Below, piece after piece: positions 4,444-29,562 of a DNA stretch of 64,000 bases. The number at the start of each line of letters is the position of its first letter. The stretch's first letter is position 1. Position numbers and translations under genes: made by a program. Where the stretch lies: contig OZ024740.1 of assembly GCA_964016885.1 (NCBI GenBank), forward strand, positions 417,198,001 to 417,262,000, given 5' to 3'. The stretch comes from Eledone cirrhosa. Its lineage: Eukaryota. The notes beneath the pieces are model-generated. The model worked only from the letters and a program-made list of their open reading frames with translations. It searched no databases and was not told the origin of the DNA.

Positions 4444-4474
4444 AATATGATTTTATAAATATAGTTTCCATTTA

Positions 4475-4597
<123 letters not shown>

Positions 4598-4652
4598 ACA
4601 CACACAGTATGTATACAGTATATATATAAACTATATACATTATATATACTAT

Positions 4653-4842: not shown

Positions 4843-5144
4843 TATATACTATATATGATATTGTCCAAAGGAAAGACAAAGGCCAAAACACCCTGGCACC
4901 AGTTACATCGCAACTCATATCTACAACTAAGTGAACTTGCTCAGGGAGACAACACAGCCTGGTCCAGGAACCAAATGCACAACCTCATGACTGCAAGTCC
5001 AACTATCTAACCCCTAAGCCATGCCCCTTCACAAATAATTGAGCTATGGAGACCTTAAGAAATTAACATTTCCTTCTGTTCTTAATAAAACAACAAAATT
5101 CTATATTTGTTGTCAAATATTTCCATGTATGCAGTTCAAAACAT

Positions 5145-5570
5145 CTTTCTCTCTCTCCTTCAATAGTTTCCTCTCTCTCTCTCGCTTTCCTTCAATGTTT
5201 TTCTCTTTCTCTCTCTCTCCTTCAGTGTTTTTCTCTCTCTCTCTCTCTCCTTCAATCTTTTTCTCTCTCTCTCCTTCAATGTTTCTCTCTCTTTCTCTCC
5301 TTCAATGTTTCTCTCTCTTTCCCTCCTTCAATCTTTTCCTCTCTCTCTCCTTCAATGTTTCTCTCTCTCTCTCTTTCTTTCCTTCAATCTTTTCCTCTCT
5401 TTCTCTCCTTCAATCTTTTCCTCTCTTTCTCTCCTTCAATCTTTTCCTCTCTTTCTCTCCTTCAATGTTTCTATCTCTCTCTCTCTTTCTTTCCTTCAAT
5501 CTTTTCCTCTCTTTCTCTCCTTCAATGTTTCTCTCTCTATCTCTCTCTCCATCAATCTCTTTCTCTCACC
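5145..5570. repeat. CT-rich minisatellite (ctctccttcaat units)
   Basis: Direct reading. Confidence 0.9.
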
Positions 5571-5983
5571 CATTTTTCTTTAATATTTTTCTCACCCTCT
5601 CTTAAAGGTCATTTATTACCTAAACTACTCTCTACCGTTTTGTACATCTTTTACCAAAACAAAGTTTTGTGATATTAAATAAATGAGATCTGTCTGTCTT
5701 TCTTCAGAGAAACACTAACAACAACAAAACATTATTTCATTTGACTTCACATCTGAAAATATTGCCTTTTTTAAATTTTTTTATTACAATTATAATAATT
5801 TATAAAAACATAAACAATGACAGTTGCTCTGAAATTTAATAACACAATAAATATAACTGAATATAATCAAGATTTATCACTCAGCATAATCAATGATACA
5901 CTTTCTTCATAGATAAAACAATATTTAATATACTTAGACAATAATAACACCACAAATATATCAGTAGTAAATCTCTTAATATT

Positions 5984-6288
5984 ATCATCATCATCATCAT
6001 CATCATCATCATTTTTCCCTGCTTGCAAGGGTGAGACGGGAACTGATTCTGGCTTGATTTCTACCGCTAGATGCCCTTCCTAACACCAACCTCATTTACA
6101 GTGAGTGCTGGGTGCTTTTTGCCATGGCACCTCCACAACCACTTTGCAGTGGAATGATAGGGACCCCAGTCCCTATCATCTCATTTCTACAGCTGAGTAA
6201 ACTGGAGCAATGTGAAATAAAGTGTCTTGCTCAAAGACACAACACATCACCCGGTCTGAGAATTGAACTCACAACCTTTCGATTGCAA
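5984..6288 (-). mobile_element. SINE family 2 copy
   Basis: Reverse complement of 14953-15240, with (CAT)n tail on the plus strand. Confidence 0.8.
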
Positions 6289-7367
6289 ATATATATATAT
6301 ATATATATATATATAAAGATGCATGAATTACATCTTGATTGCATGGGAGAACCATTGAAATAATTATAAGGAATAAACAATTTATGTAACATCAGCATCT
6401 TTATTAATGTTATTATATATATATATATATATCATGTAATTTTGACCAGGCACCCTTCAGTTGTACCAAAGACATGACAACTTCACTAGTATTGGTGATC
6501 TACACAACAAACACACCCAGTACATGCTATAAAGTGCTTGGTGGTTGGAACAGTATCCAGCCATTGAAAACTTGCCAAACAAAGAGTTTGGAAGATCCTT
6601 CAGCTATGTCAAGGACATGACAATCTCTAGTGTTGGTGCCATGATAAAATACTCTTGATAGAAAGTGGAGCTATATGAGATACTCTCAACCCTAGCCTGT
6701 CTGAGATCAGTGGCCTTGCTTCAGTACAGACTTGGTTTGTGAAGACCTATCCAATCCTTGCTAGAAGGGAAAGTGGATTTTAAATAATGATAATGATGAT
6801 ATAGATAACATTTTTGGTAATGACTATTTTTCTGTGAAAGAGAACTCCATACATAAGTAGATTTATTTTAAATGTTATTACCTGTAATGTTATTACCTTC
6901 TGTAACTAAATTAAATACACACGCCCACACATCCACTCTATACTGCATGGAAAAGCAGACATATTATGATGATGGTTATATATATATACATACATACATA
7001 TATATACATATATATATATACATACATACATACATAGGTTATTCAGTAATTTTGTGGATTACTGGAGGTGGTATCAATATGAAATGTGTATAACTGGTCA
7101 ATAATCAATAAAAACATTTATGTTAAACTTTATCATGTTAAACTTAATTTATACATATATACCTACACACACATATATATATATCATCATCATTGTTTAA
7201 CATCTATCTTCCATGCTAGTATCATCATCATCATTTTATGTTTGCTTTTCCCTGCTTGCAAGGTTGGGACATATATATCCTCATCACCATTTTACGTCTG
7301 TTCTTCCACGCTAGCATGGGTTAGACGGGTTGTCCTGTTGCGAGCAGTGTCTCTTAATATATATATA

Positions 7368-7567
7368 TATTTAATTAGAAAGTGAACAACATAAAATATA
7401 ACTACTCCATTACCAAAGGTTTCTGGATCACAGATGATAATAATATATGTCTGGATTGTTCGTCAGACAGGACGAACGATCCAGACATATATTATTATCG
7501 TCTGTGATCCAGAAACCTTTGGTAATGGAGTAGTTATATTTTGTGTTGTTCACTTTCTAATTAAATA
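7368..7567. repeat. Near-perfect 200-bp palindrome (fold-back)
   Basis: ~97-bp arms with few mismatches around a 6-nt loop (agacag). Confidence 0.9.
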
Positions 7568-7837
7568 GCTCTGTTCTATGCATAGAGCACTCTTTTTTCC
7601 TTTGCTTTTCCTTCAGAATTACCTAACATATATAAATATATAAAAATCAGTTGTAAATCTCTTAATATACATATCTGTTAGTTTAACAATTAAACAATGC
7701 CTTATATTCATCCATAAACAAATTATACTGTATTAGAGACAGAAAGAGATAAACACAGCCTGAAGTATGATTATAAAGACTCCTCACCTTATTAAAAGAA
7801 AGTATAATTTCACAATAGCTAAATATATAAAGGATAT

Positions 7838-8012
7838 GTCTTAAACTTCCCTTTTCTCTTCATATGAATACTAGGGAACAAAAAGCGCATTGCTCGGTTG
7901 CACTGCACACCCCAATATTGTACACCAGGCTCCTCAATTTTCTGTCCCAATAACTGAAGGACCTCATCACGTGAGATACCCATGTCAAAGTCACCAGTCC
8001 AGAAAACAAGTT
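7838..8012 (-). CDS. Host gene exon C (175 nt): second RFX-like/winged-helix-type repeat
   Basis: Acceptor ttttatAG with phase-1 join G|AA = E. Reads LVFWTGDFDMGISRDEVLQLLGQKIEEPGVQYWGVQCNRAMRFLFPSIHMKRKGKFK and ends at U12 donor |ATATCCTTTA. Confidence 0.85.
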
Positions 8013-8213
8013 CTATAAAATAAATCACAATATATTACATGATAAATCTTAAATGGACTCTCTGTATGTGTGTATGTATGTATGTATGTCAGTATAGATA
8101 GATGCATATTTAGGTATCTGTAGCCAGTCCAACTTTAGATATGTAAATATATAACTGTAAAAATGCCCTAAAATGCATAATGAAATAATATAAAGTTAAG
8201 ACTATTTTATAGT

Positions 8214-8260
<47 letters not shown>

Positions 8261-11200
8261 ATCATCATCATCATCATCATTTTACGTCCGCTTTTCCCTG
8301 CTTGCAAGGGTGGGACGTGTCTTATTCAGCACAGCATCTCTCCACTCGTCACGGTCCCTCGTCATCTCCACCGTGAGCTTCAATGATCTGAGGTCTGTTC
8401 TCACCACCTCCGCCCATGTTTTTCGTGGTCTACCTCTACCACGTCTTCCTTCAACTGGCATTTCCTGGCACTTCTTCACCCATCGGTCATCCTCCATGCG
8501 CATCACATGTCCATACCACCGCAGTCTCCTCTCCCGTACACTACATTCTATCCCTCTCAGACACAGTTTCTCTCTCAACACATCCAACGGAGCATGCTTG
8601 CCTCATTTCTCTCCAGCCGTTGCATATCCTCTGCAGTTGCTGCCCATGTCTCACTACCATGCAGCATTGCGCTCCTCACACAGGCATCATACAACCGGCC
8701 TTTCGTACGCAGGGAGAAACCCTTCTTCGTCAACAGAGGAAGCAGCTCCCTAAACTTCTTCCAACCCGTCTTTATTCTAGATACTATGGCCTCGGAACAC
8801 CCTCCTCCCATGCTAATCTGATCTCCTAGGTACCGGAAGCTATCCACCACTTCTATAGCGCCCTCTTGCATTTGAAAAATGTGTCTATCAGTGCGACTTC
8901 TACTGTCTAATTTCCCTGTACATCTACTGCATACATATTTCTCCCTACCTGTTAGTTTGCCTGCTATCCCGCTACATCTCTTGTGTACCCAGTTCCTTTT
9001 CTGCATATCGAACATGGCCATTTCCCTGACGGAATCAGGGTTTTGTCCTCTTTTCTACTCATCAACACTTTTGTCTTAGCTAGATTCACTCTCAGTCCTC
9101 TTGCTTCCAACTGCTGTTTCCATAGCCAGAATTTATTCTCTAGCTCCTCTACTGATTCTGCTATAAGAACCAGATCGTCAGCATAGAGAAGTTCCCATGG
9201 ACAGCCAGTCTTAAACTCCTCTGTTATGGCTTGGAGGACTATAATGAACAGGAGCGGGCTGAGGACCGAGCCCTGATGTAATCTTACTTGTATCTGGAAT
9301 TCCTCACTAAACTCCATTCCTACCCTGACTTTACTGAGAGTACCTCTGTACAAAGTTTGCACTGTCCTCACAAGCCATTCCTCAACACCTAGCTTCCTTA
9401 GGGACCACCAGATGACAGATCGGGGTACCCTATCAAAGGCCTTCTCTAGGTCAACAAAGGCTAAGTATAGTGGCTTATTCTTCTCTAAGAACCTCTCTTG
9501 CATTTGTCTCACCAAGAAGAGGGCATCTGTTGTACTCTTCCCAGGCACAAAACCAAACTGCATCTCATCTAGTTTGACCCTTTCTCTAATTAGTTGTGCT
9601 AAAATCCTTTCTGCCACTTTCATAACCTGATCTATCAGTTTTATACCCCTATAATTGCTCCTCTCCAAAGCATCCCCTTTACCTTTGTAGCAATTTATGA
9701 GAATACTGCTGCACCAGTCTTTGGGTATGACACCACCATATATAGCCTGATTGATGATGCGTGCAACCAGTTTAGTGCCTACGTCCCCTGATGCCTTCAG
9801 CATCTCAGCAACTATTCCCGATGGTCCGACCGCCTTACCATTTTTCATTTCCCTAATCGCCTCTTGGACCCTATATTCGTCAATCTCAATAGCTGGTCCC
9901 TCTGTCGGATCTACCAAGGGTAATTTCTCTCTCTCCCATTCGTTCTCCACATTCATCAGTCTCTCATAATGACATTTCCAGGCCTCCTTTTTCTGATCAT
10001 TCGTGACACTAAGTACACCGGCATCATCCCGGACACATTTATCTCCAACAACATCCTGATTTGCATTGACACACTGCCTTGCAATGTGGAACACCGCACG
10101 CCTCTGATCTTCCCGTCGCAGAACATTGGCAAACCTCCTACTCTCTGCCTCCCTGCGTGCTAAGTACACCTGACGTCTAACTTCTCTCTTAGTGGCTGTA
10201 TATTCTTCCCTACTCCCACCCTTTTTCCAAGCCTTCCATGCTAGTCTTTTGTCTCTAATAGCCTTATCTACTGTGCTGTTCCACCACCAGGTCACTCTCT
10301 GTCTGGTTGGAGCTCTGCTCCAGCCACAGGTTTCATCAGTAGCCTGCAGCAAGTTGTCACGTAAGAAATTCCAGTTATTATCTATGTCATATGTCTCTAA
10401 ATCGTCTTCTTTTTCGTCATATACATCTTGAAGGGCTTTCCTAAATTTGTATTTTAGTGAAAGGTCTTTTAGCTTCCAGACCTTTCTTCTCCACACCTTC
10501 CTATATGTCTCATTCCATCTCTTGCTTACTGAGATATCACTAACAACTAACCTATGCTGTGGGGTACATTCTTCCCCAGGGTATGCCTTGGTATTAAACA
10601 CTATCTGCCTGTCCCGCTGCCTAACTAGCAAGAAGTCAATCTGGCTTATGTGCTCACCAGATTTGTAGGTTATTAGGTGATTGGCAGGTTTCTGGAAGTT
10701 TGTGTTGCAAATAGTCAATGTACTCGCATCACAAAATTCAAGAAGTCTCACTCCTTCTTCATTTCTTGAACCGTAACCGTGCCCACCATGTACCCCAGTG
10801 TAACCATCCTGGAGCTGTCCAACATGACCATTGAAGTCTCCTGCTAGCATAACGATGTCTCCGTCCTCTGTCATTGTGGTTGTTTGCAAAAGTTGCTCAT
10901 AAAAGCAGTCTTTCTCATCTTTGCCTAGGCCTGCTTGGGGAGCATAGACCGAGCTGATTGTCAGTAGTCTCCTACCTACAACTAATCTAAGCTTAATTAT
11001 TCGATTACTAACTCAAACTACCTCTATTGTCTTATTGATCCATTTCTCAGCCAGGAAAATGCCTACTCCCCCTAGCCCATCATCCTTACCTACCCAGAAT
11101 AACTTATAGCTAAGACGCTTGCCTACGACTAGTCTCGCAGAGGCACCTCTCCATCTCACCTCTTGCACGCAGCACACATCCACCTGCCTTCTCTCCAGCA

Positions 11201-11410
11201 TCTCCGCTATTTCAGCAGATCTACCTCTGAGAGTGCCAACATTAAGTGTTGCAACTCTGAGATGCGACGTCTTCATATTTTGTTGTTGTTCCTATTTGCT
11301 GCTGTGCTGATAAGTGTTTTGGCATTGATACACTGGTTGGATGCCCTTCCTAACACCAGCGCCACTTTACAGCATGGACTGGGTGCTTTTATTTGTGCCA
11401 CCAGCACTAG
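8261..11410 (-). mobile_element. Near full-length RTE-clade LINE (APE endonuclease + reverse transcriptase), in the host intron between exons B and C
   Basis: APE motifs ([40 protein letters not shown]), RT motifs (YRGIKL, QFGF, FVDLEKAFDRV, HQGSVLSPLLF, YADD) and a (GAT)n tail at ~8261-8280. Confidence 0.95.
8282..11276 (-). pseudogene. Disrupted RTE ORF: one nonsense codon and two frameshifting deletions
   Basis: ATG at 11276; in-frame TGA at 11015-11013, after which the frame continues VSNRIIKLRL...; frameshifts near 8992 and 8578 relative to the paralogous ORF at 3-905. Confidence 0.9.
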
Positions 11411-11669
11411 AGAGGATGTCTTACTAGACTCAAGGGCCCTCTCTACCCCTCCATTTTACAGCATGGTCATTAAAAAAAGAAAAAAAAAAAAAAAACTTAT
11501 TGACACGACGCACACACAAACACTCACACACCAATACTCATGTATACAAACCACAACCACACACACGCCATACATACCAACACTCATTCATGCATACAAT
11601 CACACACACCACTCACAAACACACATATATATACATATATTACCGACAGTACTGATACAAAATCAAAAT

Positions 11670-11718
<49 letters not shown>

Positions 11719-11770
11719 TATTTACAACATATATATATATATACACACACACACATATATATATATATAA

Positions 11771-11827
<57 letters not shown>

Positions 11828-12028
11828 CATATATATATACATAGATATATATATCATCATCATCATCATCATATATATATACATAGATATATATGTATAT
11901 ATTTATACATAGATATATACAAACATTCATATATATATATATTCTCTGTGTTTAAAAGCCAAGAATTCAGCTTCATACATTCTATATTATATTATGTTAT
12001 ATTTTAATTCATTTTATTTCAATGGTAC

Positions 12029-12159
12029 CTGGTAGAAACTGTAAGATCTTCTCCAAATCCTGAGAAAGATCTCTCAGTGGTTGATAAGTGACATTTTCAG
12101 AATCACTTAGTTCTTCTTGTTCCTGTAATTGCTCTATAAGAGCCACACCAAAATAGTAC
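12029..12159 (-). CDS. Host gene exon B (131 nt): end of repeat 1, linker and start of repeat 2
   Basis: Preceded by U12 branch point TCCTTAAC (plus-strand gttaagga 12171-12178) and an AC acceptor 11 nt downstream. Joins exon A in frame (AA|G = K): YYFGVALIEQLQEQEELSDSENVTYQPLRDLSQDLEKILQFLP. Ends CCAG|GTACC (phase 1). Confidence 0.85.
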
Positions 12160-12446
12160 GTTGTCAGCACGTTAAGGAGAATTAGATCAATAATCAATAA
12201 AAACAAAACAAAACAAAACAAACAAAAATTCAATAAAACAAGAATCAGAAAGGAGGGTTTTTGATATTTCAAACAAATAAAAACCCATAAAAAACAACCC
12301 CAGCTATCAATAATCGTCTTGATTCTTCTGTGACTTTCTTCAGTCATGTAACCCATTGTGTTTGACGATTGTTTTTTTACAAGTTTCAAATCCATTCATC
12401 ATCATCATCATCGTTTAACGTCCATCTTCCACGCTAGCATGGGCTA

Positions 12447-13343
12447 GGCAGTTGTTTCTTACAATAGTTTCTAACCCATTGTGTTTGGCAGTTGTTTCTT
12501 ACAATAGTTTCTAACCCATTGTGTTTGGAAGTTGTTTCTTACAATAGTTTCTAACCCACTGTGTTTGGCAGTTGTTTCTTACAATAGTTTCTAACCCATT
12601 GTGTTTGGCAGTTGTTTCTTACAATAGTTTCTAACCCATTGTGTTTGGAAGTTGTTTCTTACAATAGTTTCTAACCCATTGTGTTTGGAAGTTGTTTCTT
12701 ATAATAGTTTCTAACCCATTGTGTTTGGCAGTTGTTTCTTACAATAGTTTCTAACCCACTGTGTTTGGAAGTTGTTTCTTACAATAGTTTCTAACCCATT
12801 GTGTTTGGAAGTTGTTTCTTACAATAGTTTCTAACCCATTGTGTTTGGCAGTTGTTTCTTACAATAGTTTCTAACCCATTGTGTTTGGAAGTTGTTTCTT
12901 ACAATAGTTTCTAACCCACTGTGTTTGGCAGTTGTTTCTTACAATAGTTTCTAACCCATTGTGTTTGGCAGTTGTTTCTTACAATAGTTTCTAACCCATT
13001 GTGTTTGGAAGTTGTTTCTTACAATAGTTTCTAACCCACCGTGTTTGGCAGTTGTTTCTTACAATAGTTTCTAACCCATTGTGTTTGGAAGTTGTTTCTT
13101 ACAATAGTTTCTAACCCACTGTGTTTGGCAATTGTTTTTTACAATAGTTTCTAACCCACTGTGTTTGGAAGTTGTTTCTTACAATAGTTTCTAACCCACT
13201 GTGTTTGGCAGTTGTTTCTTACAATAGTTTCTAACCCATTGTGTTTGGCAATTGTTTCTTACAATAGTTTCTAACCCACTGTGTTTAGAAGTTGTTTCTT
13301 ACAATAGTTTCTAACCCATTGTGTTTGGCAATTGTTTTTTACA
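12447..13343. repeat. 40-bp minisatellite, ~22 copies
   Basis: ggcagttgtttcttacaatagtttctaacccattgtgttt repeated head-to-tail. Confidence 0.95.
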
Positions 13344-13346
13344 AAT

Positions 13347-13513
13347 GTTTCTTGTGATTACAACACTAAAGTAAGATCAACCACCTATCATACCTGTAGA
13401 ATTTCTTGTGATTACAACACTAAAGTAAGATCAACCACCTATCATACCTGTAGAGTTTCTTGTGATTACAACACTAAAATAAAATCAACAACTTATCATA
13501 CCTGTAGAATTTC
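13347..13513. repeat. 54-bp tandem repeat x3
   Basis: tttcttgtgattacaacactaaagtaagatcaaccacctatcatacctgtaga at 13348, 13402 and 13456. Confidence 0.9.
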
Positions 13514-13604
13514 CTATCATGTTTTGAATACAAACTATTTCAAAGAATGAACTATGAACAATGTGTGTTGTTGAATATTGAGTTCAAACCTTAAACTTCT
13601 CTAT

Positions 13605-13651
13605 AGGTAGTAGTGGTTATAGTAGTAGTAGTAGCAGCAGTTGTAATAGTG

Positions 13652-13705
<54 letters not shown>

Positions 13706-13833
13706 ATGGCGGTGGTAGCAGTAGTAGTGGTGGTGGTGGTAGTAGTGGTAGTAGTAGTAGTAGTAGTGTGATGGTGGTAATGGTAGTAGTTGTGGTAGTA
13801 ATATTAGTAATAGTGGTGGTAGTAGTAGTAGTA
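13605..13833. repeat. (TAG/TGG)n microsatellite
   Basis: Direct reading. Confidence 0.9.
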
Positions 13834-14455
13834 TTCGTAATTCTAAGTGAGCAAATGTTATTTAAAAGTGAGGAGACCTTGCTACTTCAAAGTAAGATTT
13901 AAGGACTTCAAAATGAGAAATAACCACTTGAAAACAAAGACAGAGATTTTCAAAATGGGATTAACACAGAAAAATATATTTAATAGTAAATGTAACACCA
14001 AAGCACCGTTATAACACTTGTAATGTCTACAACACAAACTAGCTGGGTTAAGTAAAAGCTTTCATCAGCTACTTTTGGGTCTTGACTAATCCCCCCCCCC
14101 CCCACACCTGCTTATAAATTTTTCAGGTTTTTTCTACACCTTCTCCTGCTCTTATTCCACCCCATCCACCACCGCTTATTAAATTTTTTGTTAATCTATC
14201 TCCATCGAAATTTTATTTTAAGTCGTAACATATCTGTGACAATTAATTTTCTTTATACATTAAAAACACATTATACATGACAAAGCACATAGGTTGCCCT
14301 GGTAATATATATTTTTAGACGGAATGTCATGTTTAAGGTAGTTATATCTTATTTAATTCTGAAGATTCCTAATATTGAGAGTTTAATATTGAAGATGAAA
14401 CATATGTAAATTCAAATATGATATAGTTAGCAGTGTTTGGTTTTATTTTTCAAAG

Positions 14456-14493
<38 letters not shown>

Positions 14494-14535
14494 AAACACT
14501 GGAAGGTAATATCTGTAGCGATAGAGTACTCAGTC

Positions 14536-14828
14536 CAGTTAGTTCACCATACCGAGAACAATTGATTCACCTTATGCAGATCTTCAGCTCGGACTGGTAA
14601 TGGTTATACGGAACAGGAAGAACTGTATGAATGCGCATGCGCAGAAACGTATCTCTACAAAGCTCCGGATTGAATAACAACATTCTAATTTCCTAATCAA
14701 CTCGGACATTTTAATCCGAGCACTCGCAGTTATCTCCCTTACACTTTTCGTTCGTATATACCATTACCAGTCCGAGCTGAAGATCCACATAAGGTGAAAC
14801 AATTGTTCTCGGTATGGTGAACTAACTG
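14536..14828. mobile_element. Inverted-repeat element (~75-bp arms), Penelope-like
   Basis: cagttagttcaccataccgag...ggtaatgg mirrored by ccattacc...ctcggtatggtgaactaactg. Confidence 0.7.
14772..14812 (+). ncRNA. Minimal type I hammerhead ribozyme motif
   Basis: CCGAG-CTGAAGA-tccacataaggt-GAAA-CAATTG-TT|CTCGG. The inverted copy at 14552-14592 has GAAA changed to GAAT. Confidence 0.65.
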
Positions 14829-14928
14829 TTGTGTTACTACTTACATATATATATATATATATATATATCATCATCATCATCATCATCATCGTTTAACGTC
14901 TATCTTCCACGCTAGCATGGGTTAGACG

Positions 14929-15256
14929 GGCTTAGTGGTTAGAGCATTGGGCTTGCAATCGAAAGGTTGTGAGTTCAATTCTCAGACTGGATGATGTGTT
15001 GTTTACTTGAGCAAGACACTTTATTTAACATTGCTCCAGTTTACTCAGCTGTAGAAATGAGATGACAGGGACTGGGGTCCATATCATTCCACTGCAAAGT
15101 GGTCGTGGAGGTGCCACGGCAAAAAAGCACCCAGCATTCACTGTAAATGAGGTTGGTGTTAGGAAGGGCATCCAGCTGTAGAAATCAAGCCAGAATCAGT
15201 TCCCGTCCCACCCTTGCAAGCAGGGAAAAAGCGGACGTAAAATGAAATGAAATGAA
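14929..15256 (+). mobile_element. tRNA-derived SINE, family 2 (tRNA head + CORE-like body + RTE-derived parts)
   Basis: A-box-like TAGTGGTTAG, B-box GAGTTCAATTC, ttgagcaagacactt body, gttaggaagggcatcc motif, and a 3' end almost identical to the RTE LINE end at 8281-8317. Confidence 0.8.
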
Positions 15257-15575
15257 TATATATAATTGGGCCAGAAATGAAGTGCAGAGTCATATATGAA
15301 ACTATATATATTATTTATAGATCATTTATACAATGTTAAAGATAACGTCAAGGGACAATAGATAGTGTCAAATCAAATATCAGGCTTAAAAGTTTAATTT
15401 GTGTCATTCATAGAGAAATGAATGACACAAAAGCAGATAGCCACATCTGGTTTGATACACAGCTACACAACTAACAGATGCATACACACACTTATGTAGA
15501 CATACATGTATACATCATCATCATCATCATCATCATCATCGTTTTACGTCCGTTCTTCCACGCTAGCATGGGTTA

Positions 15576-15633
<58 letters not shown>

Positions 15634-16421
15634 GGAACCTATAAGACCCCGACAGCTGAGCTCAAGCCGTTTCGACGGCTAATTCTGGACATATAATTCT
15701 GTATATATATATATATATATTATCATCATCATCATCATCACCGTTTTACGTCCGTTCTTCCATGCTAGCATGGGTTAGACGGGTTGTCCTGTTGTGGGCA
15801 GTGTCTGGTCGGCTGACCATGCCTTGCTCATACAGGAACTGATTCTGGCTTGATTTCTACAGCTGGATGCCCTTCCTAACACCAACCTCATTTACAGTGA
15901 GGGCTGGGTGCTTTTTTGCCGTGGCACTTCCACGACCACCTTGCAGTGGGAGGGTGTGGGGGCATATTGTCTATATATATATATATATATGTATGTATAT
16001 ATATAGGGAAAAGCGGATGTAAAATGATGATGATGATGATGATATATATACATACATATATATATATACGTGTATATACATACACACACACACATACATG
16101 CATATATCATCATTATCATTTAACGTTTGTGTATGTAAATATATATACACATATAGATATACATATATATATATATACACACATATATATACACAGACAT
16201 ATCATCATCATTTAAACACATAAAATAATGGTGGTGGTGGTGTGTGTGTAAAATGTAGATATATATATAACTCATATACAACATACATTATTACACAAAT
16301 CTATATTGTAGACATTATATTTATGGTATCTCTTCATTTTATTTTTAGCCTTAATATAAATGAATATACATATCATCATCATCATCACCGTTTTACATGA
16401 TGACACAGCAAAAGCGCTCAC

Positions 16422-16625
16422 CTCACTGTAAAGAGGTTGTGCTGGTGACATGACAAAAAGCACTCAGTACTCACTGTAAAGTGGTTGTGCTGGTGACACG
16501 ACAAAAAGCACCCTGTACTCACTGTAAAGTGGTTGTGCTGGTGACACGACAAAAAGCACCCAGTTCTCACTGTAAAGTGGTTGTGCTGGTGACACGACAA
16601 AAAGCATCCAGTACTCACTGTAAAT
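16422..16625 (+). repeat. 48-bp tandem repeat x4 inside a SINE
   Basis: tcactgtaaagtggttgtgctggtgacacgacaaaaagcacccagtac units, followed by gttaggaagggcattc and the SINE tail. Confidence 0.85.
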
Positions 16626-16854
16626 GAGGTTAGTGTTAGGAAGGGCATTCAGCTGTAGAAACCAAGCCCAAATTACTTGTGTATGTGCAAGACATGGTCA
16701 CCTGACCTAGCATTGCCCACAACAGGACAACCCATCTAACCCATGGTAGCATGGAAAAAACGATGTAATACGGTGATGATGGTACATATATACACACACA
16801 TATATATATATATATACACCACATGTATACATATACATATATGTATACACATGC

Positions 16855-16886
<32 letters not shown>

Positions 16887-16934
16887 ACATGCATACATAT
16901 ATATATATACACATACATTTGTACATATATGTAT

Positions 16935-16966
<32 letters not shown>

Positions 16967-17935
16967 CATATTGAAATATAGTAGGTAAAACCTTACGTTG
17001 TTTTGTTTTATTTCTCATCCTTTACCCTTTATATATTTCTACCACATTATACCGGCTTTTTGAAACTGTACAGTCATTGTTAAAATAATCTTAACAAATA
17101 AAAATGGCTGACATGCTAAAGGCTTTAAAAGCAGGATAAAGTCAGTGATGTCTTCATTTATTCTACAACATTGTTCCAAGCATGTTATCTCTTACAAGTA
17201 ATGGAGTTTGATTCTGTTACCATGTTTGTGAAGAGGGAATGAACACCATTGACAAACAAAAGATTTTACAGAGTGTCAATTCTAGTTAAAAGGCAGCAAA
17301 ATTACACAAGAATTTAGTATTGGAAAACTCATAAAAGATTAGTAAACATGCTTTTTCACATAATTATGTTCAGTATGGTTTCTTTTATTTATGATCAAAT
17401 CAGTTCTCTGAACAGATCAAATAAAATATACCTCAGCTATCTTGCTTGGATAATCAAACTGCAACTTGTTTGTAATATACAATATTATATGCATATGTAA
17501 TATATATATATATATATATCCAGCTGTAAAAATCCCAGCCAAAATACAGTTTCGTTTGAGCAAGGTATGGCATGGCCAGACTTAGCTCAGGACCTGGGCA
17601 ACCAGGCTAACCCATGTAAGCATGGAAAAATAGGCATTAAACAATGATGATGTTGATGATAGACATACAAGCACAAACTTGCTATCTTATAGATAGCAAG
17701 TTTGTCTTGTTACATAGATGTATATGGTGTGATAGCAAAACAGAAATAGATAGAATACACACGTGTATGATTGTATATACAAATATAGTAAAGAAGTGAT
17801 CACTGACTGGGTAGGTGGATTAGGTTTCGAATTAGTGCTCAACTGAAGGAGCTGAGTTATATATAAAGTCTGTGTTCTGAGATCAGGTAGTACCATTGTA
17901 AATCAGGGTAGTACTCTATGCATGGTTAGAAGTGT

Positions 17936-18533
17936 CTTCCTACCACACTGTCTCACTTCCTACCACACTGTCTCACTTATTATCATACTGTTTCACTTCC
18001 TACCGCACTGTCTCACTTCCTACCACACTGTCTCACTTCCTAACTTCCTACCAGTCTCATTTCCTACCAGACTGTCTCACTTCCTAACTTCCTATCACAC
18101 TGTCTCGCTTCCTATCACACTGTCTCACTTCCTAACTTCCTATCACACTGTCTCACTTCCGACCAGACTGTCTCACTTCCTACCAGACTGTCTCACTTCC
18201 GACCAGACTATCTCACTTCCTACCACACTGTCTCACTTCCTAACTTCCTATCACACTGTCTCACTCCCGACCAGACTGTCTCACTTCCTACCAGACTGTC
18301 TCACTTCCGACCAGACTGTCTTACTTCCTATCACACTGTCTCACTTCCGACCAGACTGTCTTACTTCCTATCACACTGTCTCACTTCCTAACTTCCTATC
18401 ACACTGTCTCACTTCCGACCAGACTGTCTCACTTCCTATCACAGTCTCACTTCCTACCAGACTGTCTCACTTCCTATCACACTGTCTCACTTCCTACCAG
18501 ACTGTCTCACTTCCTATCACACTGTCTCACTTT
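17936..18533. repeat. 20-bp minisatellite
   Basis: cttcctaccacactgtctca and variants. Confidence 0.95.
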
Positions 18534-18574
18534 TCCTTCATAATATTGCCCAGACTATTGTTTATACAATCTCT

Positions 18575-19073
18575 TTACTTGTATCTATCACTCTCCTCTA
18601 TCACCTTCCCACTCTTATATCTGTCTATCACTCCCATTCTCTTCCTTTACTCTCTCTCTCTCCTCTATCACCTCTCTCTTGTATCTATCTTTCTCTCTCT
18701 TCTCTCACCTTCCCACTCTTATATCTGTCTATCTCTCTCTCTTCTATCACCTTCCCTCTCTTATATCTCTCTCTCTTCTATCACCTTCCTTCTCTTATAT
18801 CTCTCTTCTCTCACCTTCCCTCTCTTATATCTCTCTCTTCTCTCATCTTCCCTCTCTTATATCTCTCTCTTCTCTCATCTTCCCTCTTATATCTCTCTCT
18901 TCTCTCACCTTCCCACTTTTATATCTGTCTATCTCTCTCTTCTCTCACCTTCTCTCTCTTATATCTCTCTTCTCTCATCTTCCCTCTCTTATATCTCTCT
19001 CTTCTCTCACCTTCCCTCTTATATCTGTCTATCTCTCCCATTCTCTCCCTTTACTCTCTCTCTCCCCTCTCTC
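18575..19073. repeat. CT-rich minisatellite
   Basis: ctctcttatatctctctcttctctcaccttcc-type units. Confidence 0.85.
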
Positions 19074-19312
19074 ACCTTCCTACTCTGTCTCTCTAGTTAG
19101 ATATTCTTCTAAAGTTAGATATACTAAGACATTATAGTAAAACTTCAACATGCTATCAAATGGCTAATATCTCTTGGCTTCTCCAATCAATACTTGTATT
19201 AATTACTAACAGCTGATTCTTAGTTGTTTTTTTTTTACTTTCTTTTAACTCCTTCTTCAACAAGCTATAGAATTTTCTTTTGTTCTGTTTTTCGTATATT
19301 TGTATATTTATA

Positions 19313-19390
19313 CAGGGTGTCCCAAAAAATGTATACACATATTTATTAGAATGCTGTTGAAGTGTGTTTACATTTTGGGGGTACATCCTC
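19313..19390. mobile_element. Tc1/mariner-type MITE (~80 bp)
   Basis: TA|CAGGGTGTCCCAAAAAATGTATACAC...GTGTTTACATTTTGGGGTACATCCTC|TA. Confidence 0.6.
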
Positions 19391-20135
19391 TATTTATATT
19401 TGTATTTTCCACATGCACTTAGTTGGCAAAATAAAACTATAAATAGGAGAAGATTATCTATTTTGCTAGGCATTGGCTCTTGTAGAGAAATTGAGTGATA
19501 AAAACCAAATGAGATATATTAGAAAGCTATGGGTTTCTAAAATGGATAGCTCAAATAAAAAGTAAGAAGAATTAATTGTTGCCATTTGTATGCACCATTA
19601 AACTGCATTTAGAAAATTCTAGAATGTATCATGTGAAATACACCAATGAATCATCATCATCACCATTTAACATCCATTTTTTCAAGCTAGCATGGGTTAG
19701 ATGAGTTGTCCTGTTGTGAGACAAGTCAAATCAGATGACTAGTTTCTATGACTGAATGCCCTTCCTAATGCCAACAAAATTTACAGCATGGACTGAGCGC
19801 ATTTTGTCATGTCACCAACATGTCACTAACATGACCATTTTGCAGTGTGGACTGCGTACTTTTTATTGTGACACCAAAATGATCCCTTTACAGTTTTGCT
19901 CATAAAATCTGTCCAGCAATTCTTTCCTGAAACATTCTAACCACATGTCCATAATATCAGAGCTGCGATCTCTCAATTTAGAGAAGTAGCAGCTCTACCT
20001 CTAGAGATCTTGAGATCCAAATCAGATCACAAGTTTCCAGGAATATTTAATTAGCCATACTGAGTATAACTATAAGTCAAAAACAAATATTGCAAACCAT
20101 TTTGTCTTTTATATCAAACAATCAAGTTCCCTTAA

Positions 20136-21341
20136 CTGGTACAGCCAGTCATTGGGGTGCCACACTAGATGTGCCACTGGTGTAGCCAGTTGTTGGGGTG
20201 CCACACTAGATGTGCCACTGGTGCAGCCAGTTGTTGGGGTGTCACACTAGATGTGCCACTGGTGTAGCCAGTCGTTGGGGTGTCACACTAGATGTGCCAC
20301 TGGTACAGCCAGTTGTTGGGGTGTCACTGGTGTAGCCAGTTGTTGGGGTGTCACACTAGATGTGCCACTGGTGTAGCTAGTTGTTGGGGTGTCACACTAG
20401 ATGTGCCACAGGTGTAGCCAGTCATTGGGGTGTCACACTAGATGTGCCACTGGTGCACCCAGTTGTTGGGGTGCCACTCTAGATGTGCCACTGGTGCAGC
20501 CAGTTGTTGGGTGCCACACTAGATGTGCCACTGGTGCAGCCAGTTGTTGGGGTTCCACACTAGATGTGCCACTGGTGCAGCCAGTTGTTGGGTGACACAC
20601 TAGATGTGCCACTGGTACAGCCAGTTGTTGGGTGACACACTAGACGTGCCACTGGTGTAGCCAGTTGTTGGGGTGTCACACTAGATGTGCCACTGGTGTA
20701 GCCAGTTGTTGGGGTGTCACACTAGATGTGCCACTGGTGTAGCCAGTTGTTGGGGTGTCACACTAGATGTGCCACTGGTGCAGCCAGTTGTTTGGGTGCC
20801 ACTCTAGATGTGCCACTGGTACAGCCAGTCATTGGGGTGCCACACTAGATGTGCCATTGGTGCAGCCAGTTGTTGGAGTGCCACACTAGATGTGCCACTG
20901 GTGCAGCCAGTTGTTTGGGTTCCACACTAGATGTGCCACTGGTGCAGCCAGTTGTTGGTGTGTCATACTAGATGTGCAACTGGTACAGCCAGTTGTTGGG
21001 GTGTCACACTAGATGTGCCACTGGTGTAGCCAGTCGTTGGGGTGCCCCACTAGATGTGCCACTGGTACAGCCAGTCATTGGGGTGCCACTGGTACAGCCA
21101 GTCATTGGGGTGCCACTGGTACAGCCAGTCATTGGGGTGCCACTGGTACAGCCAGTCATTGGGGTGCCACACTAGATGTGCCACTGGTGCAGCCAGTTGT
21201 TGGTGTGCCATACTAGATGTGCCACTGGTGCAGCCAGTTGTTGGGGTGCCACTCTAGATGTGCCACTGGTGCACCCAGTTGTTGGGGTGCCACTCTAGAT
21301 GTGCCACTGGTGCACTCAGTCATTGGAGTGCCACTCTAGAT
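20136..21341. repeat. 41-bp GC-rich minisatellite (~30 units, with 27-bp deletion variants)
   Basis: ctggtgtagccagttgttggggtgccacactagatgtgcca. Confidence 0.95.
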
Positions 21342-21547
21342 ATTTGACTGTGCTCATCATGGCATTTAAGAGGGTCTTAGGAATTTGAATTACTGAAGAA
21401 CTTGTAAAAACATTAAATGAAAGAAGTATTACCAACATCAATATGATATCTTTTGTTTACAGTGATCAGTCTATCTGTTGATCTCAACTGCTCATTTAAA
21501 AAGTGTTAAAACAATTTTAAAATAAAAAAAATTACTGGTTATTTCAA

Positions 21548-21736
21548 CCACCAGGAGACCCCAGGAGTAGACCCTGAGCAACATGGTTGGACAACATCCA
21601 TGAGCTTGGCTGGTCTCACTTGAGGATCCAGCAGGATCAGTTGGAAACAGTTGATTTCAACAGGACCGGCTGGAAAGAGTGTTTGAGGACTCTGCCCTCA
21701 CGACCCTCTCAGGAAAACGTGGGCGAAGAAGAAGAA
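21548..21736 (+). mobile_element. RTE (Rex3/Expander-like) LINE 3' fragment
   Basis: RP*ATWLDNIHELGWSHLRIQQDQLE...WKECLRTLPSRP, then (GAA)n. Confidence 0.6.
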
Positions 21737-22165
21737 AAATTACTGATTCGTTCAAGGATCAAAAATCATAGCAAAAGCAGTGATGTCTTCATTCATGCTA
21801 CGATTTTCTTCTAAGTAAATATTTGTTACCATTGAGGCTGTTTCTGTTACTATGTCTGTGAAGATATAGTGAACACTATTAACAAATTTGAGCACAAAAG
21901 TGAGATTTTACAGTGTATGGCATTGTGCAAGTGCTCTGAAGTCTCCGACTTTTAGCTTTGATTCTCTCACTGAGAAATCATAGAGCTGCATGATCATCAT
22001 ATTATATATCGATGTCTATATATATAGGGAATGTAATGTGCAGTTACTGTAGGTTCACCCGAGTGAACACTCGATGCGTAGTTTCCAGTCTGTAACGAGG
22101 TGTAGAACTAAGCAGAGTGTAATTATAATAAAAGGACGATTTGTTATATCTTCATTACGTTTATT

Positions 22166-22258
22166 GAGTAGTGACACGTGTTTCGCTATTGATCAGCTCA
22201 AGGTTCGATCTGTATCGATCTAGCCTGACTCTGGAATCAAAAGCTCGTCGGACCTCTG
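22166..22258 (-). ncRNA. Degenerate hammerhead motif of a related element
   Basis: CCGACGA-gcttttgat...atcaatagc-GAAA-CACGTG-TC; stem II is homologous to 22427-22518, while the core and stem I are mutated. Confidence 0.45.
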
Positions 22259-22322
22259 CTGTGATAATTTTCTTACTCCCACAACTGTGTCTATTCTACT
22301 CAATAAGCTTCGTCCCATAATT

Positions 22323-22380
<58 letters not shown>

Positions 22381-22426
22381 TATAAGGATAAGGAACAAGG
22401 ATTCAGTGTTGCATCATAATATATTT

Positions 22427-22518
22427 AACATATTACATATGTTTCTCTATCGCTCAGCTCGAGGCAAGATCTATTATAGATCAAACCTGACTCTAATCAA
22501 AAGGTCGTCAGATATGTT
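22427..22518 (-). ncRNA. Type I hammerhead ribozyme motif with extended stem II
   Basis: AACATAT-CTGACGA-(~60 nt stem II region)-GAAA-CATATG-TA|ATATGTT. Confidence 0.7.
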
Positions 22519-22553
22519 TAGTATATGAGTTTGTCTCCAATTCTCATGTACTA

Positions 22554-22647
22554 AGCATATCTGATGACCTTTCGATTACAGAGTCAGGTTCGATCTATAA
22601 TAGATCTTGCCTCGAGCTGATCAATAGAGAAACACATGCAATATGTT
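22554..22647 (+). ncRNA. Hammerhead motif, inverted and probably inactive copy
   Basis: AGCATAT-CTGATGA-...-GAAA-CACATG-CA|ATATGTT; the U of the cleavage triplet is mutated. Confidence 0.5.
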
Positions 22648-22783
22648 AAATATATTATAGTATTATACTCTGCTCTGCGCAAGCATAGAGTGCTCAACCG
22701 GCATACCGCCTACGGACGCATTTTTCATGCAAACAAACAACTATATATATATATATATATATTTATATATTTATATATATTTA

Positions 22784-22834
<51 letters not shown>

Positions 22835-23744
22835 TTTATTATGGTTAGGTAATGAGTCTTGTTATTCTGGAGTTTCACCTGTGTACTCACAGGGTCATCA
22901 CATAAGTCTTGTTTAATAATCCTTTGAGCAAAGGTGAAACTCCTGAGTAACAAGACACATCACAGTGTATGGATCATGGAGAAAAAGAATCAACAATTGT
23001 CACAGGTGTACAATATTGGAAAACTTATAAATCTTTGTAAACATGTTTTTGTGAATATTTATGTAATTAGGTTCAATAAGGCTTCTTTTGTTTATGATGA
23101 GATCATTTATCCAAACAATCGGTTATTTGAACAATGAAATATTACACACATCTCGTTTAGATAATCAAGGTATGGCTGTAAAGTAAATGAAAATATCAAC
23201 AGTCTGTAGCTATTACATAAAAGATATGTATATGCATACATGGAATAAATTGGATGGACTGATGTTAGATGCACCCACCACCCAGTTAAAGATACATTAT
23301 ATGGGTAATTATCCACCCCACAATACACCACAGTTGTGCAATATAATTTCAATGTGTAGGCACAAGTAAGAAATCTAAAGCTTTGTTGAGCATGTCAAAA
23401 CAAAATGGAGTCCTTGAATGTCTGCAAATATACCTACCTGAAGTGGACACAATACAGAAATATTTCTATCAGCATGAGACATGCAACAGGTTGCAGCAAT
23501 AAAGCAACAGATTGCAGCATTAAAGCAACAAAGGAATTTTTTAAAAACCTCATTTAGAGGGTTGAGGTGCAGCTGACCTAGATACAATAGACACAAAGCT
23601 ACATACTTTAATACACAAGGCCACTTAAATACTAAACATCCAGACTGTTGTCCTGTACATATGTAATATAAATTATACTTTTAAATATCTGGGGTCTTTC
23701 ATGACTAACAGAGTAACATCCACCTCCCCTCTTTATTCCTGATT

Positions 23745-23913
23745 CATCTGGCCACATGCATAGAGCGAACACCCCACTCTCTTTTCCTGATAGATCTGGT
23801 CACATGCATAGAACTAACACACCCCACTCTCTTTTCCTGATAGATCTGGCCACATGCATTGAACTAACACCTCACTCTCTTTTCCTGGCAGATCTGGCCA
23901 CATGCATTGAACT
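23745..23913. repeat. ~48-50-bp tandem repeat, ~3.5 copies
   Basis: atctggccacatgcatagaactaacaccccactctcttttcctgatag. Confidence 0.85.
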
Positions 23914-24104
23914 GACAAAAACATCTGACAGCAAATAGATTAGCACACATTAAAATATGTTTTTGTTACTGTGATACAAGAATAAGAAACCAAGATGGAA
24001 ATGTTATCTAATGCTGTTGGTACATTCAAACTCTGTGACACATTAATTGTGCATATAGAGCATAATTTAACATAGTTATATATACAAAAAAGCTAACTTT
24101 AAAG

Positions 24105-24474
24105 CTATGAACAATGCAGAACCCTTGAAAGGATCATGTTAAACATCACTTGGCGAGATTGAAAAACTGCGGAATGGATCTGAGAAAAAGATAAAAGTCC
24201 ACGACATTGCAGAAATCATTAACAAAGCAAAATGGAAGTGGGCAGGACACATTGCTAAAATGACTGACAACAGATGGACCACCTGTGTCACCTTCTGGAC
24301 CACACAAGGTCACACAAAAAACTGAGGCCACCAGAAGACCCGATGGTGAGACAACTTTGAGAAAATTGACAAATTTTGGCCACGAATGGCTCAAGATTGG
24401 GAAACATGGCACAGCTCAGGGAAGGCCTATGTCCAACAACAGACTCTCTAGGGATAAAGATGAGATGAGATGAT
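24105..24474 (+). mobile_element. Degenerate RTE LINE 3' fragment (another family)
   Basis: KAKWKWAGHIAKMTDNRWTT, with a (GATGA)n tail. Confidence 0.7.
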
Positions 24475-24499
24475 ATATACAAAATATCATCCACCAGAT

Positions 24500-24944
24500 A
24501 CCTTAACTCTTCAGTATTTATATATCTATCTATATATACTATTGTATTTTTGCGGTAAAGAATTTATCTCACATAATATTGAATCTATAAGATTTTGATA
24601 TCATCTAATTTGAGAACAATACCTTAACTCTTTAGCATTCATATTACTTGTTATTTACTATTTTATTTTCACAGAAAAGGCTTTACCTCACATAACTATA
24701 TCACATAGTATGGAATCTATGAGATTTTGATATTATTTATTTTGAGAACAATACCTTAAAGTCAGTATAAGGGGCCAATTATGGCTGGTTTGAACAGAAA
24801 GAGGTGAGATAATTCTGGCCGGCTATGGCCGGTTTAAATGCTAATGGGCTAACATCAGTATGAGTAGCCATTACGGCCGTTTTGAACAGAAAGAGGTGAG
24901 AGAATTCTGGCTGGATATGGCCAGTTTAGATACTAAAGGGTTAA
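24500..24944. mobile_element. TTAA-bounded MITE-like element with internal duplications
   Basis: ttaactctttagcatt (24624) pairs with tactaaagggttaa (24931-24944); internal segments are duplicated. Confidence 0.45.
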
Positions 24945-25427
24945 ACCATGGCATAAAATTTTAGGAAAGAATTAGAAGGATAGAAGCAATAACCAAATCG
25001 TCTTATGTGACATCAACCTTTCTAACCTCAAATAGGTGAAGAGCTACATCCTTCTCTTAGGACTAAGATAACATGACTGCTGACAAACAGCTTCTACTTG
25101 ACCTCAGGAGCATGTCATTCAACTCAGATAATATTCTCTGACCATAGAATCATAGAATCAATGATGTATAGTCCAGTCCCCAATAAAAATCACTCCAGCT
25201 CTGTCCAACCTGAATTTTCTACAAAACTCAATGGAAATCAATTAAATGAAATCTTGGTTTGTATATGTGATCCTATTTACCTCACATGTGGCAAACATGT
25301 ATGTGACAAACATGTATCAAACTTTACATGTTTCTAATATAAAAATGTATTGGTCACTGTTTATGTTCTTATTTTTTTGTTTTGTCCTCCAATATGAACA
25401 TAGACAGTAAAACATGCAAAAGTACAA

Positions 25428-25621
25428 TAATTGTTTCTACTTTTGGCACAAGGCCAGCAATTATCCCAGTGTATTACTGGTACTTTATTTTATCGACCCC
25501 GTAAGGATGAAAGGCAAAGTTAACCTCGGCAGGATTTGAACTCAGATCATAAAGGGCCGTAACTCTTTGCTGCAAAGCATGGTGTCCGACCCTCTACCGA
25601 TACTGCCAATCCACCGCCCCA
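25428..25621 (-). mobile_element. tRNA-derived SINE, family 1
   Basis: Reverse complement of 4653-4842. Confidence 0.85.
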
Positions 25622-25675
25622 AAACACAATAATACACACATCTACAAATGTACATATACACACACATGAAGTAAC

Positions 25676-26035
25676 ACACATTGACTAATGCATATCTACA
25701 TACACATTGACTAATACATATTCACACACACACATGGACTACACATATCCACACACACACACATTGACTAATACACATTCACACACACTGACTAATACAC
25801 ATTCACAAACACACATTGACTAATACACATTCACACACACACATTCACACACACATTGACTAATACACATTCACACACACACATTGACTAATACACATTC
25901 ACACACACACACATTGACTAATACACATTCACACACACACATTCACTAATACACATTTACACACACACATTGACTAATATACATTCACACACACACACAT
26001 TGACTAATACACATTCACACACACACACACACACA
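25676..26035. repeat. CA-rich minisatellite (attgactaatacacattcacacac)
   Basis: Direct reading. Confidence 0.9.
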
Positions 26036-26104
26036 TGAACAACACATATCCACATCCACACACATATCCACGCATGTACTAACACACACATTATTGATAA
26101 AGTA

Positions 26105-26557
26105 ATAAATAATTTTCTAACATTGGCACAAGGCCAACACATTTTGGAGGGAAAGGTAAAATTAATTTAAAATAATTATTTAACTGGTACGATTATTTTA
26201 TCAACACACAAAAGGCAAGGGATTGACAGAGTCGGTAGAGCGTTGGACAATGCTTTATGGCATAGAGTTATGTCCCTTTATGCTCTGAGTTCAAATCCTA
26301 CTGAGGTTAATTTTGCCTTCCATCCTTAGGGGGTCGATAAAATAGAGTAACCAGTAATACACTGGGGTTGATTTAATTGACTTTCCCTTCTCCCCCAAAG
26401 TTGTTGGCCTTGTGCCAGAAGCCATTATTTTATCAACCCTGGAAAAATGAAAGACAAAGTTGACCTTGACATGGAATATTACAAGATGTGGAAAATACTG
26501 CAAAGCATTTTGTCCGATGCTCTACCAATCCCGTCAATTCCACCAATCCATTGCCCT
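26105..26557. mobile_element. Nested family-1 SINEs: a + copy (~26218-26422) inside an older - copy
   Basis: Plus copy with B-box gagttcaaatcc, flanked by the two halves of a diverged minus copy that share attattttatcaac at the junctions. Confidence 0.6.
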
Positions 26558-26645
26558 CATAAACTAATAAATAATACATATTATACATTAATAATGCATA
26601 ATTATATTAATTTTTTGTTGTTCCAATGTGGAAGAAAAAGGATAT

Positions 26646-26814
26646 TTCTTGAACTTCCCTTTCCTCTGAGCCATAGTACTAGGAAACTCTTCTCTCACAG
26701 CCTTGTTACATGCAGGTCCCCAATGAACCATTTCAGGAATGTTCAGCAGTATACTAATTTTCTGAAGAAGTAGGTCACGTGATACATAACCTTTAGCACA
26801 GCCAACTAATAACT
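26646..26814 (-). CDS. Host gene exon A (169 nt): first RFX-like/winged-helix-type repeat, N-terminal part
   Basis: Acceptor ttttcAG, then open frame (x)LLVGCAKGYVSRDLLLQKISILLNIPEMVHWGPACNKAVREEFPSTMAQRKGKFK, ending at U12 donor |ATATCCTTTT. Clearly paralogous to the exon at 7838-8012. Confidence 0.85.
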
Positions 26815-29380: not shown

Positions 29381-29562
29381 TTGATGGCTATATATACCCA
29401 TACTTGGTGGCTATATATACCCATACTTGGTGGTTATATACACCCATTCTTGGTGGCTATATATACCCATACTTGGTGGCTATATATACTCATACTTGGT
29501 GGCTATATACACCCATTCTTGGTGGCTATATATACCCATACTTGGTGGCTATAGCTACCCAT
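29381..29562. repeat. 23-bp minisatellite, ~8 copies
   Basis: ttggtggctatatatacccatac. Confidence 0.9.

Follow-up and report, generated by a model that had tools for sequence, protein, structure and literature searches.

What kind of protein is encoded by a gene that crosses part of the Eledone cirrhosa genome with two similar domains in tandem, and where did these domains come from? The question is raised by a stretch of 64,000 nucleotides (GenBank assembly GCA_964016885.1, contig OZ024740.1, positions 417,198,001 to 417,262,000; hereafter the window), in which a preliminary description had noted tandem repeats resembling the winged-helix DNA-binding domain of RFX transcription factors. The present analysis supports that reading and adds what the description had missed, namely minor (U12-type) introns, zinc fingers and a specific link to RFX5 and RFX7 (RFX5/7). 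The protein is likely a divergent, overlooked offshoot of RFX5/7.

In a six-frame scan, the part of the gene in the window consists of four minus-strand exons (A to D, Table 1), across whose splice sites the reading frame is intact. The spliced product is 174 residues long, of which 171 are identical to the Octopus sinensis protein P0004 and to the O. bimaculoides protein P0224. The peptide segments placed earlier at 7838-26814 are present on the minus strand, but exon D, which encodes the last strand of repeat 2, had been left out. Exons A and C share 42% identity, and profiles of the two repeats match with a probability of 99.7 and an E value of 8.8e-26; judged from these sequence comparisons, the repeats are homologous. 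A tblastn search with a 1085-residue octopus protein gave no further credible exon in the window among the matches listed, and the window holds only part of the gene.

The remainder of the gene, and the number of repeats, for which a wider search had been proposed, is seen in the homologues. A profile of exons A and C identified 36 proteins among 194 candidates, and a profile of the tandem region retrieved 69 proteins at E ≤0.001 among 1.84 billion representatives, two of which (P0078 and P0080) are unrelated and matched the linker; a profile from 17 divergent single domains yielded no additional named taxon. The named members are from cephalopods, gastropods, bivalves, one chiton and the brachiopod Lingula, and the taxonomic range may be wider. 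Full-length members comprise about 720-1500 residues, with three to five C2H2-type finger motifs followed by two repeats of about 80 residues, which are spaced 101-112 residues apart and located at the C-terminal end of this conserved zinc-finger protein. A transcript-type record (P0095/P0096) combines a single domain with a related zinc-finger region, and a genomic-type record of the single-domain member (set P0076, P0095, P0096) runs through the wing without an intron. The two-repeat member P0027 has about 100 additional C-terminal residues that appear globular and have no Pfam match.

The U12-type consensus consists of an RTATCCTT donor, a TCCTTAAC-type branch site near the 3' end and an AC terminus, and introns 1 and 3 of the gene both contain all of these elements. 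Exons A and C are each preceded by AG (phase 1) and followed by ATATCCTT (phase 2), and exons B and D are each preceded by a TCCTTAAC branch site and then AC; each repeat is split by an AT-AC U12-type intron, in phase 2, at the same codon. Only two RTATCCTT donors are present in the 64 kb, at the ends of exons A and C. About 1.2 such donors per strand would be expected by chance in the first 29 kb; therefore, the weight rests on the shared codon at which the two repeats carry them and on the matching branch sites. In the family, the wing motif runs on into Y-P in 41 of 99 cases, is continued in frame in 54 and reads K-L-V in 4; the 41 motifs that read into Y-P indicate that the introns are conserved across the mollusc/brachiopod family. 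The K-K-L-V at the wing, in place of K-K-Y-P, is found in the genomic fragments P0071, P0072, P0101 and P0102 and would fit, judged from the peptide alone, a U12 donor turned into a GT-type donor at the same place.

Each U12-type intron ends in two AC acceptors 3 nt apart. O. sinensis and O. bimaculoides both have annotated RefSeq isoforms (X1 and X2) for the two acceptors of intron 1; the choice at 12159-12162 (minus strand) yields isoforms with or without a threonine at the position of RFX Y159. The preliminary description had spliced both wing junctions at the downstream AC, and at junction 1 this short form corresponds to isoform X2 (P0223, P0228) of the two Octopus species. At junction 2 no such short form was seen. 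A threonine directly follows the split codon in both repeats of all 20 two-repeat proteins examined, and the upstream AC is therefore needed.

The fold of the repeats was predicted with AlphaFold2. The O. sinensis tandem region forms two compact alpha/beta domains with a predicted local distance difference test score (pLDDT) of mostly about 90 and a predicted template modelling score (pTM) of 0.47, joined by an acidic linker with pLDDT <50; repeat 1 modelled alone, from P0006, reaches a pLDDT of 94. The models were compared with 48,161 representative chains. For repeat 1, the best match is RFX5 (Z 10.3, root-mean-square deviation (rmsd) 3.0, 80 aligned residues), followed by RFX1 (Z 9.1, rmsd 2.5, 72 aligned) and a next row at 6.4; for repeat 2, RFX5 (Z 10.1, rmsd 2.9, 80 aligned) is followed by RFX1 (Z 8.4, rmsd 2.7, 72 aligned) and a next row at 7.3, where Z values of 7-8 are common by chance according to the note of the structural tool. 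Foldseek places RFX5 first for both models, with a template modelling score of about 0.7 and E values of 0.013 and 0.0012. The ARID2 domain does not appear in the fold match lists, which does not exclude a likeness to ARID2. Both repeats are predicted winged helices with RFX5 and RFX1 as top matches, as had been anticipated, and very probably have an RFX-type fold.

The superpositions cover residues 2-82 of repeat 1 on RFX5 85-169 and residues 9-81 on RFX1 1-76. Their start offsets place the invariant Arg27 on RFX5 K110/RFX1 R19 and their end offsets place the split Lys71 on RFX5 K158/RFX1 K66, two positions that are DNA contacts according to the available text of PMC12311785. Repeat 2 shows the same end register, and in every one of the four superpositions the split codon falls on K158/K66. 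The four-residue change between the offsets equals a two-residue deletion before helix 3 and another of two residues in the wing, which matches motif counting with a wing spacing taken from the RFX5/7 sequences of the identity alignment. In RFX5/7 and in both repeats alike, the conserved glycine of the last strand comes five residues after the split codon. Based on the end offsets, the wing codon equivalent to K158 is thus interrupted by a U12-type intron in phase 2.

An intron of the same type and phase is found in the wing of RFX5/7 genes, likely at the same position. In the accessible part of bioRxiv 10.64898/2026.08.20.745718, RFX5 and RFX7 are minor-intron genes without a dimerisation domain, and in the supplements of PMC6717393 Rfx5 (mouse and human) and Rfx7 (mouse) are entered with AA before the U12 donor. 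The minor-intron gene files of these supplements contain a weak, mouse-only U12 call for Rfx6, in a different exon context, and do not contain Arid2, Rfx1 or Rfx3. Metagenome contigs were scanned for the RFX5/7 intron with a degenerate RFX-wing pattern followed by AA and a U12 donor. Fifteen of the 16 loci obtained are RFX coding exons, the other (L005) being a chance match to the wing-plus-donor pattern. All 15 extend the donor by TT past the search pattern, and five show a branch site and a next exon beginning Y-C/F-Y-x-G. The U12-type intron has AT-AA termini in the RFX5/7-type loci L012, L013, L015 and L016 and GT-AG termini in L006. At the protein level, the wing motif is present in 99 of the best 120 of 490 RFX matches (absent in 21), and it reads through as K-Y-P in 85, is spliced in 10 and is otherwise continued in 4. 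Independent gain of this rare intron class at the aligned codon and in the same phase is unlikely; therefore, descent from RFX5/7 is taken as the best origin, and the domain probably originates from there.

Profile comparisons point in the same direction. With a profile of 11 RFX5/7 domains, 31 of 34 forward repeats scored above every reversed control, and in the reverse search all 11 RFX domains ranked above their own reversals, at E values of only 0.003 to about 4 in both searches. In a phylogenetic tree, a branch with a support of 96/94 has 15 repeat-1 sequences on one side, among them that of Lingula, and the repeat-2 sequences do not separate (two changes would be needed, one of which occurs in 17% of the bootstraps). 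The repeat-1 branch, together with the identical exon/intron pattern of both repeats, points to an internal duplication of the exon pair within the gene before the mollusc-brachiopod split. Five species (Haliotis cracherodii, Argopecten irradians, Ylistrum balloti, Mizuhopecten yessoensis and Pomacea canaliculata) possess this gene and a separate RFX5/7-type protein that carries PF02257 and PF18326; the gene is therefore not the mollusc RFX5/7 itself but a paralogue. Among the best 120 of the 490 RFX matches there was no octopus RFX5/7.

Several results weigh against this origin or against its details. Identity to 13 RFX5/7 domains is 7-20% (12-18% in the superpositions on RFX1 and RFX5), global hhalign of the full domains gives a probability <1, local hhalign gives 35 and 90 over 18 columns only, and searches of PDB sequences with both family profiles returned no RFX entry. 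With the Pfam RFX_DNA_binding profile (PF02257), named earlier as a check, only two members out of 14 in one set (best E 0.0012) and two out of 17 in another (best E 0.0067) give a weak match, and the two scores listed, 16.2 and 13.6 bits, are below the cut-off of 27. Neither Foldseek search reached E 0.001, and at a pTM of 0.47 the model contains no fixed orientation between the domains. The register assumes a gapless last strand, in that the fold tools report only the first and last aligned residues, and MAFFT placed the two-residue wing gap on the other side of the intron site. The scan pattern itself required a donor at that place, and its 15 loci fall into about seven sequence types. RFX5/7 genes have a phase-2 intron in helix 2 that is absent here, exons A and C being unbroken through helix 2, and the phase-1 intron of this gene was not seen in the RFX loci, which mostly cover the downstream exon only. 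The branch leading to the family exceeds seven changes per column and is saturated, and the rows of the tree do not include RFX1-4/6 or ARID2; the tree cannot place the family inside RFX. Additionally, repeat 1 has a glutamine at the R149 position, a change that weakens human RFX5 as described in the available text of PMC12311785.

The same text names the nine DNA contacts of RFX5 and their RFX1 equivalents, and these were counted by motif-anchored mapping over 20 two-repeat proteins. The equivalent of K110 is arginine in 20/20, in both repeats, that of K137 is lysine or arginine in all 20 proteins, and those of R140, R150 and G152 are invariant in both repeats (20/20). At R149, glutamine is present in repeat 1 (19/20) and lysine in repeat 2 (19/20); at K158, lysine in repeat 1 (20/20) and threonine in repeat 2 (19/20). 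Y159 is replaced by threonine in all proteins and both repeats, and neither repeat offers a clear counterpart of R154 in its shorter K-F/Y-K loop. About six of nine contacts are therefore kept per repeat, Lys/Arg swaps allowed. RFX DNA-binding domains are highly conserved, with largely invariant contact residues (PMC2873420 and PMC10530576, as far as available), and the accessible part of PMC2873420 defines RFX transcription factors by at least 40% identity to a known DNA-binding domain and by all nine contact residues. The repeats stay below that identity and lack some of the contacts; by this definition the protein is RFX-like, as ARID2 is, and not an RFX transcription factor. Across the molluscs and Lingula, the wing R-K-G-K-aromatic-K and the helix start W-x-x-x-C-N are nearly invariant.

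These features suggest how the protein may have arisen and how it may act. A copy of the RFX5/7 DNA-binding domain, together with its minor intron, would have diverged inside a C2H2-finger protein, after which the exon pair would have been duplicated inside the gene prior to the mollusc-brachiopod split. Each domain would grip DNA through the retained contacts, namely the arginine at the N-terminus of helix 2, Lys/Arg and Arg in helix 3, and Arg-x-Gly in the wing. RFX binding sites frequently take the form of inverted repeats that are occupied by two RFX molecules (PMC10530576, available text). The acidic flexible linker of about 20 residues may stand in for the dimerisation by which RFX1-4/6 cover two half-sites, so that two tethered domains could cover two half-sites as one chain, with the linker providing freedom of spacing. 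The shorter wing and the change from tyrosine to threonine would alter base reading, and a different sequence may be read. It is reasonably likely that the pair binds DNA sequence-specifically. The entire proposal, namely that two RFX-type winged helices in a mollusc/brachiopod zinc-finger protein stem from an RFX5/7 gene and bind DNA together within one chain, probably at sites other than the X-box, is held with moderate confidence.

The alternative that survives best keeps the RFX5/7 origin but assumes that the pair is a chromatin binder of low sequence preference that grips nucleosomes or the DNA backbone; the acidic linker would contact histones, and the zinc fingers or partners would provide the targeting. 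R154 and Y159, two of the five RFX5 contacts that the available description does not give as backbone salt bridges, lack a like equivalent in the repeats, RFX5 binds nucleosomes via an acidic surface (PMC12311785, available text), and the linker between the repeats is acidic as well (4-10 Asp or Glu in 24 residues across the homologues). Additionally, 10 of 29 proteins, from bivalves, Haliotis and Lingula, carry an AT-hook-like GRP[RK] motif 22-28 residues downstream of repeat 2, but it is absent in octopus, and the near-invariant wing and W-x-x-x-C-N fit a precise recognition surface; overall, this alternative appears unlikely. The motif was also considered as a tie to RFX5, which was dropped, as none of 11 RFX5/7 proteins checked contains it.

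An origin from the RFX-like domain of ARID2, a PBAF subunit, or from an older RFX-like stock is distinctly improbable. ARID2 also has C2H2 fingers. Its RFX-like domain, compared here by description only, is divergent, with 29% identity to RFX1 and five of nine contact residues (PMC2873420, accessible part). However, no ARID domain is found at E 0.1 in 19 full-length homologues, the gene described here has two repeats, Arid2 is missing from the minor-intron gene files mentioned above, and in the comparison with reversed controls the best 31 rows of the RFX5/7 profile were all forward, though weakly scored. That the repeats are generic winged helices for protein or RNA binding with a convergent RFX likeness is highly improbable: other winged helices (kleisin, ESCRT-II, Cdt1 and the P4 origin-binding domain) do reach Z 5.5-7.3, chance commonly produces Z values of 7-8 according to the tool, and identity to RFX is at noise level, but two RFX structures head both lists over all other rows, the invariant residues coincide with RFX DNA-contact positions, and chance alone would have to account for a rare intron class with matching phase at the aligned codon.

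Among known systems, RFX5/RFX7 (PDB 8ZJR) are closest: they are the best structural match of both repeats, share the U12-type phase-2 intron in the wing lysine codon and about six of the nine DNA contacts, and likewise no dimerisation domain was detected. The present protein differs in its two domains instead of one, its C2H2-type fingers, the missing RFX5_N match, the low identity, a wing shorter by two residues with Tyr159 replaced by Thr, W-x-x-x-C-N in place of D-F-G, the lack of the helix-2 intron and the presence of a separate RFX5/7 in the same species. RFX1-4/6 (PDB 1DP7) are the second-best match (Z 8.4-9.1) and occupy two half-sites as dimers, an arrangement that the tandem could imitate, whereas they possess one DNA-binding domain and dimerisation domains (PMC2873420, accessible part), and Rfx1 and Rfx3 are not in the minor-intron files. 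The winged helix of phage P4 alpha (origin-binding) and poxvirus D5-type proteins is also RFX-like (1KA8, Z 5.9-6.2), but its scores are clearly lower, and the protein described here is encoded by a conserved, spliced animal gene with minor introns and has no primase or helicase.

Database annotation has not identified the domain. The homologues are named "uncharacterized", "C2H2-type domain-containing" or, spuriously, "serine/threonine-protein kinase DDB_G0282963", the last of which was rejected because Pfam scans contain no kinase domain. The homologue searches therefore yielded only uninformative or wrong names and, consistent with the preliminary description, no characterised orthologue that accounts for the repeats. 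On the 19 full-length homologues, Pfam gives weak zinc-finger matches only (matches to Actin_micro coincide with the zinc fingers and were rejected) and no match to RFX5_N (PF18326), for which a Haliotis RFX5/7 control was positive. Taken singly, exons A and C match no Pfam family and exon B has one weak match to HTH_52 (E 0.16); the ESM Atlas gave no usable match for exon C or the tandem region, which indicates neither absence nor novelty. Ten of the 24 named database models from the exon A/C profile search are truncated, read through or mis-spliced at the U12-type introns, and in Pinctada one model ends and another resumes at intron 1. Such broken gene models at minor introns help explain why the domain has no Pfam family.

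Table 1. Exons, introns and repetitive elements of the window, numbered from its first nucleotide.
Feature	Position	Strand	Length	Description
Exon A	26646-26814	-	169 nt	Most of repeat 1, strand S1 to wing; AG acceptor phase 1, ATATCCTT donor phase 2; matches P0004
U12-type AT-AC intron 1	12163-26645	-	14,483 nt	Donor at 26645; branch site near 12177; two possible starts of the next exon (12162 or 12159) from tandem AC acceptors
Exon B	12029-12162	-		Last strand of repeat 1, acidic linker and first helix of repeat 2; 44/44 residues identical to P0004
GT-AG intron 2	8013-12028	-	4,016 nt	Phase 1; contains a long interspersed nuclear element (LINE)
Exon C	7838-8012	-	175 nt	Most of repeat 2; 57-residue translation 100% identical to P0004; AG acceptor, ATATCCTT donor
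U12-type AT-AC intron 3	3433-7837	-	4,405 nt	Donor at 7837; branch site TTCCTTAAC at 3449-3441
Exon D	3387-3432	-	46 nt	Last strand of repeat 2; GT donor after exon
LINE	about 8575-11291	-		Endonuclease and reverse transcriptase frames, split over several frames
23-bp tandem repeat	29381-29562			About 8 copies; adjoins the 39-bp satellite
39-bp satellite array	29624-64000			At least 893 copies, 89% matches; signs of kilobase-scale higher-order repeats

The LINE in intron 2 has the orientation of the gene. The 39-bp satellite array is located upstream of exon A and therefore probably sits within an intron of >37 kb of the same gene.

To our knowledge, no RFX DNA-binding domain comes two per protein, and no description of a tandem RFX-like zinc-finger family was found in the literature searched, whose coverage excludes subscription journals. 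In its most extended form, the interpretation is tentative: the family could be an undescribed branch of the RFX superfamily, so far from molluscs and a brachiopod, in which a single-chain, pre-dimerised RFX5/7 derivative with zinc fingers has its own DNA motif, depends on two minor-spliceosome events, tunes the wing of its first head by one residue via the tandem ACs, and has been hidden partly by minor introns that break gene models. Minor introns can thus hide a domain from annotation, and a shared minor-intron position traces homology where identity is about 14%. A conserved tandem, re-engineered RFX domain would serve as a natural experiment on changes in RFX specificity, and the tandem protein would be a candidate lineage-specific regulator in molluscs and brachiopods.

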